Origin: a virus
Taxonomy: Duplodnaviria > Heunggongvirae > Uroviricota > Caudoviricetes
Strand: one strand, 5' to 3'
DNA length: 31,280 nt
IMG/VR virus record: IMGVR_UViG_3300045988_033906
Coordinates: 1 to 31,280 of that record
Below, piece after piece: positions 27,486 to 28,892 of this stretch. The notes under the pieces were generated by a model. It saw nothing but the letters and a program-made list of their open reading frames with translations. It was not told where the DNA came from and made no database searches. The translations under genes and the position numbers were made by a program. The first letter of the stretch is position 1. Each line of letters opens with the position of its first letter.

Positions 27486-27760
27486 CAATATTTACCTTTA
27501 TCGCGAACACCTTTACCGGTTTATCGCCGAAGTGCGGATGTGTGATTGTCTTGATTTCATATCCGTCATACGGAACATCAATTCTACGGCTGGAATCGTC
27601 GCGCTTCGGATATCCCTTTGTGATAATCAGGCGGTCATATTCCCGGAACATAATTCGCTTATTCCAGTAGTCATTACACAAGCGATACTCTTCCGTTTTC
27701 TCTCCTCGAATCATGGCATCGAAGTATTCACCTTTAACGGCAAGTTGCAGGTTAGCCACG
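27478..27760 (-). CDS. ASCH/PUA-like small protein (DUF3850-like)
   Basis: GTG start at 27760 with perfect RBS AGGAGG 6 nt upstream (the upstream ATG at 27861 has no such RBS and overlaps another frame); 94 aa with motif KGEYFDAMIRGEKTEEYR typical of small ASCH-fold phage proteins (recalled). Confidence 0.5.
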
Positions 27761-28096
27761 GTTAACCTCCTGCTCAATATTTTTAAGGTCATTTTCCGCA
27801 TACAGTATTGCAGTCCTTGCTGCTCGCAACCGTGCTTTGGTGTTCTTTTCTTCGCGCTCAAGGTTGGCTACAGACTCGCGCAACTCATCACGGCGACGAT
27901 GGAGTTGCTCAATCTCAGTGACGATATGCTCACCATCAGTAGCTACCTGCAGGATGTGCTCGAAGGGGTCAATAACGCAGCCGCACTTTGTGCAACGAAC
28001 AACGCGATCAGTTTCACAAACCTCGATAGCCCGATGCTTACAGCTATGTTGTATGTAGTTTTTTCTGTCAGTTACATGATGTTCAGCAGTTTCTCT
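27753..28096 (-). other. open reading frame with no start codon encoding zinc-ribbon + coiled-coil protein; probable frameshifted gene or recoding site
   Basis: Stop-to-stop frame of about 114 codons (…NYIQHSCKHRAIEVCETDRVVRCTKCGCVIDPF…coiled coil…EQEVNRG) has no in-frame ATG or GTG ahead of the Cys cluster (only a late TTG); a 25-codon ORF with RBS GGAGG (28075-28149, MENESDNVISLVQPKRNEEKLLNIM) ends in a different frame just upstream. Confidence 0.3.
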
Positions 28097-28148
28097 TCAT
28101 TGCGCTTTGGCTGCACCAGAGAGATGACGTTGTCGCTTTCGTTTTCCA

Positions 28149-28892
28149 TTACTTCGCCTCCTGCGGCGGTTCTGGTAGCGGCATCCAGTGTGTGACGTTG
28201 CGGCTCTGCGTTTCGAAAAATTCATCACCATCACGGACGACATCAAAAAACTCACCGTCTCGATATTGCGCATAAAGAACGAATACACCATCACATAAAA
28301 TAATTACGTGCTGACCATCATCAGGCATTTGCTCACTACAGCTTATCCAACCACCCGGACTTACCGGAGAGTTGCCAGCCAGTCTACGCAAAACAGCCTT
28401 AACAGCCTCAATACGGTCATCATCAACTTTTTCTACAATATTGGAATTTAAATACTTCGAAGCCTTGCTATGCCAATCGCTGGTTTTAGGGTCTTGTCCA
28501 TCCATCAAACGCCAAGCTTCAGCGATTAACTCATAGCCAGTAACAGTGGCTTCCTGCGCATCACCAATCAGTTGTGTGATCTCTCTTTCAAGCATGCTTA
28601 GAGCGTTAGGCATTGGTTTTTCTTCAGGTACTACTGGCACTGGAGGGGCGGCATAAACAGGAATAACGTCCGATTGATCTTTATTGCTTTCATCCGTTAA
28701 AGCCCAGAATAATTTTCCAGCCGGATGTTTGAAAATATAAGCAACTTGTTCTGCTTCCAGCGATGCCAGCGCCAACTTGAACGCCTGAAGCTCAATGGCA
28801 CTGTTGGTATCCAGTCCAAACGGTAATTCATCACGATTGGCTTCGTATTCAGCGATAGTTTGCTTCAGCCATTCTTTGGTTAGTTCAGCCAT
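28149..28892 (-). CDS. DUF551-domain phage early protein
   Basis: ATG at 28892 with RBS AGGGA, 5 nt after upstream stop (ORF-track start 28943 would overlap the upstream gene by 47 nt). C-terminal block GGWISCSEQMPDDGQHVIILCDGVFVLYAQY...THWMPLPEPP is the DUF551 signature recalled from lambdoid prophages. Confidence 0.6.
   Translation of the reverse strand: MAELTKEWLKQTIAEYEANRDELPFGLDTNSAIELQAFKLALASLEAEQVAYIFKHPAGKLFWALTDESNKDQSDVIPVYAAPPVPVVPEEKPMPNALSMLEREITQLIGDAQEATVTGYELIAEAWRLMDGQDPKTSDWHSKASKYLNSNIVEKVDDDRIEAVKAVLRRLAGNSPVSPGGWISCSEQMPDDGQHVIILCDGVFVLYAQYRDGEFFDVVRDGDEFFETQSRNVTHWMPLPEPPQEAK

Follow-up and report, generated by a model that had tools for sequence, protein, structure and literature searches.

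A phiV10-like Escherichia coli phage lineage carries a phrog_1621-family gene that was probably inactivated by a recent one-base deletion

Programmed -1 frameshift sites are known from E. coli dnaX (A-AAA-AAG), from the lambda G/GT genes (G-GGA-AAG) and from the IS1 and IS3 transposases, and 70S re-initiation after short ORFs likewise occurs in bacteria. The split reading frame described here has its relatives in the phage protein family phrog_1621, which carries the annotation 'unknown function'; its homologues in the E. coli ABWA45 prophage, phage 933W (L0139) and Sp5 are the same gene, in each case annotated as a 'hypothetical protein'. A search of 5.8 billion proteins with the intact protein recovered 127 homologues (best E ~1e-78 to 5e-78, phmmer) from Escherichia, Salmonella, Klebsiella, Citrobacter, Kosakonia and other hosts, and all 127 match as one protein, mostly of about 131 aa, with a few partial or extended versions. 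Alignments of 39 and 89 members show a conserved N-terminal DNVIxLVQPK signature, invariant or near-invariant columns at C37, H39, C53 and C56, which make up the conserved metal motif C-x-H-x13-C-x2-C, and a near-invariant C-terminal helix segment, LEREEKNAKARLRxARTxILxAENDLKN.

The window analysed here, i.e. the whole 31,280-nucleotide stretch of caudoviricete DNA (IMG/VR record IMGVR_UViG_3300045988_033906), displays on its minus strand a 25-codon ORF (28149-28072) followed by a start-less 115-codon open frame (28096-27752). The former, frame A, is preceded by a Shine-Dalgarno AGGAGG (28162-28157), read directly, with a 7-nt spacer to its ATG at 28149-28147; the intact genes of ABWA45 and 933W have this AGGAGG in front of them as well, and the ATG shares bases with the TAA that ends the DUF551 gene upstream (TAATG). 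The 25-codon product of frame A, MENESDNVISLVQPKRNEEKLLNIM, consists of codons 1-24 of the family protein (MENESDNVISLVQPKRNEEKLLNI), with the conserved DNVIxLVQPK inside it, and an aberrant Met in front of the premature TAA at 28074-28072. Frame C, which is -1 relative to frame A, runs on the same strand from just past a TGA at 28099-28097 to the TAA at 27754-27752 and holds 115 sense codons, an open frame with a probability of P ~0.004 in random sequence; the third minus-strand frame (+1) has stops throughout. Frame C has no ATG, GTG or TTG until TTG 27883, far downstream of the Cys cluster, and encodes ...VTDRKNYIQHSCKHRAIEVCETDRVVRCTKCGCVIDPFEH... ahead of a long, charged helical stretch. 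A prior sequence-only reading of the window had described a protein-like frame devoid of a start codon and a 25-codon ORF with a perfect ribosome-binding site, and both descriptions hold; the limits that it gave, 27753-28150, enclose the right locus, with its true ends, 28149 and 27752, each lying one base away.

Alignments to relatives placed a 1-nt deletion on the minus strand between 28077 and 28076, where the C of ACT (Thr25) is missing: relatives read ATCACTGTAACT and the window reads ATCA-TGTAACT, or, by codons, AAC ATC ACT GTA ACT against AAC ATC A-T GTA ACT. As the C of Thr25 is lost, ACT-GTA becomes ATG-TAA, which creates the premature stop. The deleted base is outside any homopolymer, and the intact homologues place it inside the interval of 28075-28100 that the sequence-only reading had suggested inspecting. 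The copy in the E. coli ABWA45 prophage (WP_000426832.1, a single ORF of 132 aa) has 99.3% nucleotide identity to the window, and the alignment contains a single indel, one extra C at window position 28077/28076; relative to this copy the downstream frame of the window has no stops and one amino-acid difference. Phage 933W L0139, with 79% nucleotide identity, is likewise a single ORF with one more base at 28077/28076, and its start, the corresponding ATG, also overlaps the stop of DUF551. The two frames can thus be joined by a single-base change, as the sequence-only reading had proposed, except that a one-base insertion or a -1 shift is required rather than the deletion it invoked. With the C put back, the gene encodes a 132-aa protein, which is found with identical sequence on 16 contigs of E. 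coli isolates and which matches the phrog_1621 profile with E=1.1e-52 (residues 1-130 of 132 against profile positions 5-134 of 134). The 3' fragment in the -1 frame (28075-27752, minus strand) comprises family codons 26-132 and the TAA, has no usable start and is otherwise undamaged, with C37, H39, C53, C56 and the C-terminal helix motif all retained in frame C. The one uninterrupted ORF of about 131 codons that marks a member of phrog_1621 is, however, missing from the window; as the one-base deletion splits it, the window copy would be a pseudogene of the family and not a functional member. Pattern scans of viral and metagenome collections returned intact alleles only, with six further exact matches that are all the 33-nt intact allele, and when the GTDB species-representative genomes were scanned by pattern for further copies of the frameshift allele, there were no hits.

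Regarding the protein encoded by the intact allele, residues 37-58 (28042-27977, minus strand) form a putative zinc ribbon that contains the invariant columns and two predicted strands (residues 42-45 and 50-53), and residues 62-131 (27967-27758, minus strand) form a single long alpha-helix, probably a coiled coil, within which lies the near-invariant segment. The AlphaFold2 model (pLDDT 86.7) comprises a flexible N-terminus, a two-strand element with the C-x-H...C-x2-C ligands and the 70-residue helix. The cysteine spacing that it listed, C-X7-C-X7-C-X2-C, is indeed present as C37-x7-C45-x7-C53-x2-C56(-x-C58); as a conserved motif it fails, since C45 and C58 vary in the same alignments of 39 and 89 members. 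Foldseek searches against PDB and BFVD gave no significant match (best E=1, to the TFIIB zinc ribbon), a PDB sequence search with the intact protein returned nothing, and Pfam, NCBIfam and PADLOC yielded sub-threshold coiled-coil noise only; a literature search found nothing relevant on a phiV10 frameshift or on WP_000426832. Based on the model we tentatively suggest, with low confidence, that the intact protein might be an oligomeric coiled coil whose zinc-ribbon head binds to nucleic acid or to a host protein.

Directly observed are the homology to the family, the exact position of the missing base and the recurrence of this deletion in independent assemblies. We consider it highly probable that the locus is one phrog_1621 gene inactivated by a genuine and recent deletion of one C in codon 25 in a phiV10-like (Uetakevirus) E. 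coli phage lineage. Under this proposal translation would start normally at ATG 28149, proceed through 24 correct codons and then reach Met-stop, and the remaining 107 codons, in the -1 frame and start-less, would go untranslated. The gene lies in a mosaic and, we infer, dispensable accessory block, which would explain why its loss is tolerated and the lineage persists. The approximately 315 nt of untranslated mRNA could possibly exert polarity on the ASCH-like gene downstream, which should still be expressed because it has its own strong ribosome-binding site. The undamaged state of the downstream frame fits a very young pseudogene and fits equally a sequence that is still used; furthermore, as the lineage has been sampled several times, the allele has not been quickly purged, a point that counts against the pseudogene reading.

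Since the missing base is the sole lesion in an otherwise perfect frame, and the exact intact protein exists elsewhere, it could be supposed that the real phage has an intact gene and that the consensus lost a base through a sequencing or assembly error. We regard this as very unlikely in light of related contigs, which were recovered by the exact sequence of the neighbouring 172-aa and 247-aa proteins and have the same gene order. All five contigs with the exact DUF551 protein collapse to one gene neighbourhood, and the public contigs displayed have an uncalled gap of 389 nt at the position of the broken gene. Two of the five, one of them possibly the window's own source, were aligned base by base: ERZ658689 NODE_337 (37.7 kb, with a SPAdes-style name) matches the window over 5.9 kb at 100% identity, and ERZ27238994 k119_37674 (188 kb, with a MEGAHIT-style name) has three SNPs over 5.9 kb, the assembler in both cases being guessed from the contig name; both have the same deletion. 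Because two separately assembled contigs, from different samples, share the identical deletion, a one-off sequencing error is unlikely; k119_37674, moreover, differs from the window by its three SNPs and so is not the same molecule, and the site offers no homopolymer in which a base would be dropped. In the approximately 19.5 kb over which the window can be aligned to phiV10 and PAS61, the closely matching structural-gene blocks are free of internal indels, and what gaps there are fall in one divergent stretch (24344-24500) or where alignment blocks end, which argues against a generally error-prone assembly. The sequence-only reading had ranked a pseudogene or a sequencing error above recoding, and had allowed that an intact single gene in relatives would prove a simple sequencing indel: the intact homologues bear out its first option, and although such intact genes exist, the deletion common to two contigs speaks against its second. 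An even more remote prospect, to which we assign next to no probability, is that the locus holds two real genes, a 25-aa peptide and an unrelated downstream gene, or that the real gene is a plus-strand ORF of 160 aa (27713-28195). The perfect ribosome-binding site of the 25-codon ORF and the long antisense ORF spanning the region could be read in this way; against this, the 25 codons are the conserved N-terminus of a single-ORF family, and the family alignment rules out two separate genes, no relative having two genes here, a layout the sequence-only reading had named as telling against a frameshifted gene and which is encountered in none of the 127 homologues. The 160-aa ORF begins with ATG and is antisense to the entire broken gene, and in 933W a similar antisense ORF, of 249 aa (L001:1436-2185), stands opposite the intact homologue. 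Comparison of the window with 933W gave 41 changes at the third codon positions of the minus-strand frame versus 22 and 16 at the other two, and since it is the third positions of this frame that change most it is the coding frame; the plus-strand ORF is most likely no gene of its own but a shadow of the frame that encodes the coiled coil.

Recoding of the locus, whereby programmed -1 ribosomal frameshifting or a related process would supply full-length protein at a set ratio, would account for the -1-shift geometry in which the frames overlap, the strong ribosome-binding site at the start and the undamaged state of the downstream frame. A -1 shift could rescue the frame solely in the seven-codon zone between the TGA at 28099-28097 and the frame-A stop (28096-28075, minus strand; GAG AAA CTG CTG AAC ATC ATG), and none of the codons in this zone can re-pair one base back, the -1 codons being AGA, GAA, ACT, GCT, GAA, CAT and CAT. 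The 25-codon ORF, examined in all phases, contains no X-XXY-YYZ heptamer, in agreement with the sequence-only reading, and there is no stimulatory RNA structure downstream, the minimum free energy of -22.4 kcal/mol being close to the shuffle mean of -23.75 (z=+0.44). We also rejected transcriptional slippage at the A6 run (28062-28057), as this run lies past the frame-A stop and slippage there would be of no help. The two-frame layout, moreover, is not conserved: it is seen in none of the 127 family members, nor in the 99.3% identical allele, all of which are single ORFs, and the split is confined to a near-clonal lineage. On these sequence grounds a claim of recoding for the locus is not supported, and we deem recoding highly improbable. 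A truncated C-terminal product with partial function, arising by re-initiation, from an ATA or ATC start or from TTG 27883, might be imagined given that bacterial 70S ribosomes can re-initiate after short ORFs and that TTG 27883 opens a 43-codon frame that includes the most conserved segment of the helix. However, no canonical start is available between the premature stop and the zinc ribbon, neither the ATA/ATC codons nor TTG 27883 have a Shine-Dalgarno motif upstream, and the 43-aa protein, which would be without the zinc ribbon and N-terminus that the family conserves, is uncalled throughout a collection of 15 billion proteins; we hence consider such a product very improbable. There is, finally, a slight chance that the split allele is alive, either because a low level of non-canonical -1 shift or re-initiation yields some full-length or C-terminal protein, for which the lineage would keep the downstream frame undamaged, or because the conserved 24-residue N-terminal peptide acts alone; if so, it would be a natural dosage-reduced or split variant of a zinc-ribbon/coiled-coil phage protein.

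The genomic context is that of a phiV10-like phage. Against a phage collection, 92% of window positions 6300-31280 matches phiV10 and the O157 typing phages 9 and 10 (Uetakevirus), at approximately 97% identity. All genes in this part of the window are on the minus strand, and the broken gene belongs to a tightly packed group of small accessory genes, flanked by the replication genes on one side and the small terminase on the other, in the order DUF1064 (29965-30312), 172-aa protein, Ead/Ea22-like, DUF551, broken gene, ASCH-like, 112-aa epsilon15p49-like and terminase. The DUF551 gene directly upstream (28943-28149, Pfam PF04448, E=3.3e-21) is called from ATG 28892 with 247 aa in the public contigs. 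Its start is ambiguous, the longest ORF (264 aa, from ATG 28943) overlapping the Ead/Ea22 gene by 47 nt; the 247-aa form is the only one on record, and the 264-aa form was not found there. Directly downstream is the ASCH-like gene of 93 aa (27759-27478, minus strand), homologous to phiV10p54, which has its own AGGAGG (27771-27766) and a GTG start (27759) overlapping the stop of the broken gene; 93 aa is also the length in the public contig calls. The three SNPs of k119_37674 (27562, 27574 and 27577) fall within 16 nt inside this gene, and the cluster looks like a short recombination or gene-conversion patch and not scattered mutation. Ten contigs that encode the same 112-aa protein fall into five groups by the genes they have upstream of the ASCH gene, and phiV10 itself lacks the family member. 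Of the phiV10-like contigs L018-L027, nearly every one has its own combination of accessory genes (Ead/Ea22, DUF551, DUF4752, dATP/dGTP pyrophosphohydrolase-DUF551 fusions and others) between replication protein P and the ASCH gene, with flanking genes that are identical at the protein level. A mosaic junction lies exactly at the Shine-Dalgarno and start of the ASCH gene (27757-27771, minus strand), phiV10 homology resuming at 27770, and all that remains of the ASCH gene past the same junction in ABWA45 and other P22-like prophages beside dsdC (L002:3400-3445) is an 11-codon stretch, MANLQLAVKGE*. As the same junction occurs in both, the phrog_1621 gene and the ASCH start seemingly travel together as a recombination module. 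Elsewhere in the window a tRNA-Arg (anticodon TCT, 24070-24146) is on the plus strand, opposite to the flanking terminase and structural genes, and the part of the O157 typing phage records that matches the window includes an annotated tRNA-Arg. Beside the tRNA gene of the window lies the sole indel-rich part of the phiV10 alignment, 24344-24500. At the left end, the plus strand encodes a glycine-zipper/TraT-like putative lipoprotein (520-1038) and a DUF5384 protein (1054-1593, E=7.5e-62), a region (520-1593) with no match in phiV10 or PAS61; this gene pair may be lysogenic-conversion cargo.

Every contig in which we saw the split allele is at least 99.95% identical to the window; together they represent one recent clone, sampled at least five times and, in one contig, at approximately 156-fold coverage according to its name. 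Judged from its sequence, the locus would be an ordinary young frameshift pseudogene of a known phage family and should, in our view, be annotated as a frameshifted pseudogene of a phrog_1621-family gene; this matters little beyond annotation. The deletion (ATCATGTAACTG) is nevertheless a clean marker for one phiV10-like lineage that is repeatedly sampled in metagenomes, and this lineage, as a natural knock-out, suggests that the phage can persist without a zinc-ribbon/coiled-coil protein that is widely conserved in enterobacterial prophages.

In comparison to known systems, the locus resembles the programmed -1 genes (dnaX, lambda G/GT and IS1/IS3) in having a short upstream ORF that overlaps a longer -1 frame, and differs from all of them in having neither a slippery heptamer, a stimulatory hairpin nor a conserved two-frame layout. 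The intact protein is reminiscent of DksA/TraR-type proteins, such as 933W L0141, encoded two genes upstream of L0139, which are likewise small and combine a zinc knuckle with long helices; the domain order is reversed, however, the zinc ribbon here coming first and being followed by one 70-residue helix, and as neither Pfam nor NCBIfam gave a match to DksA/TraR and the fold searches returned nothing significant, we reject DksA/TraR membership and regard this as resemblance only. The closest correspondence is with the ABWA45 and 933W genes, both of which, like the window copy, are preceded by a DUF551 gene with a stop/start overlap and have in common with it the N-terminus, the C-x-H...C-x2-C motif and the C-terminal helix. 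The window copy differs from them by the one base missing in codon 25, as a result of which it would be unable to make the protein, and by its residence in a phiV10-like phage, its relatives being found in P22-like or Stx lambdoid prophages.
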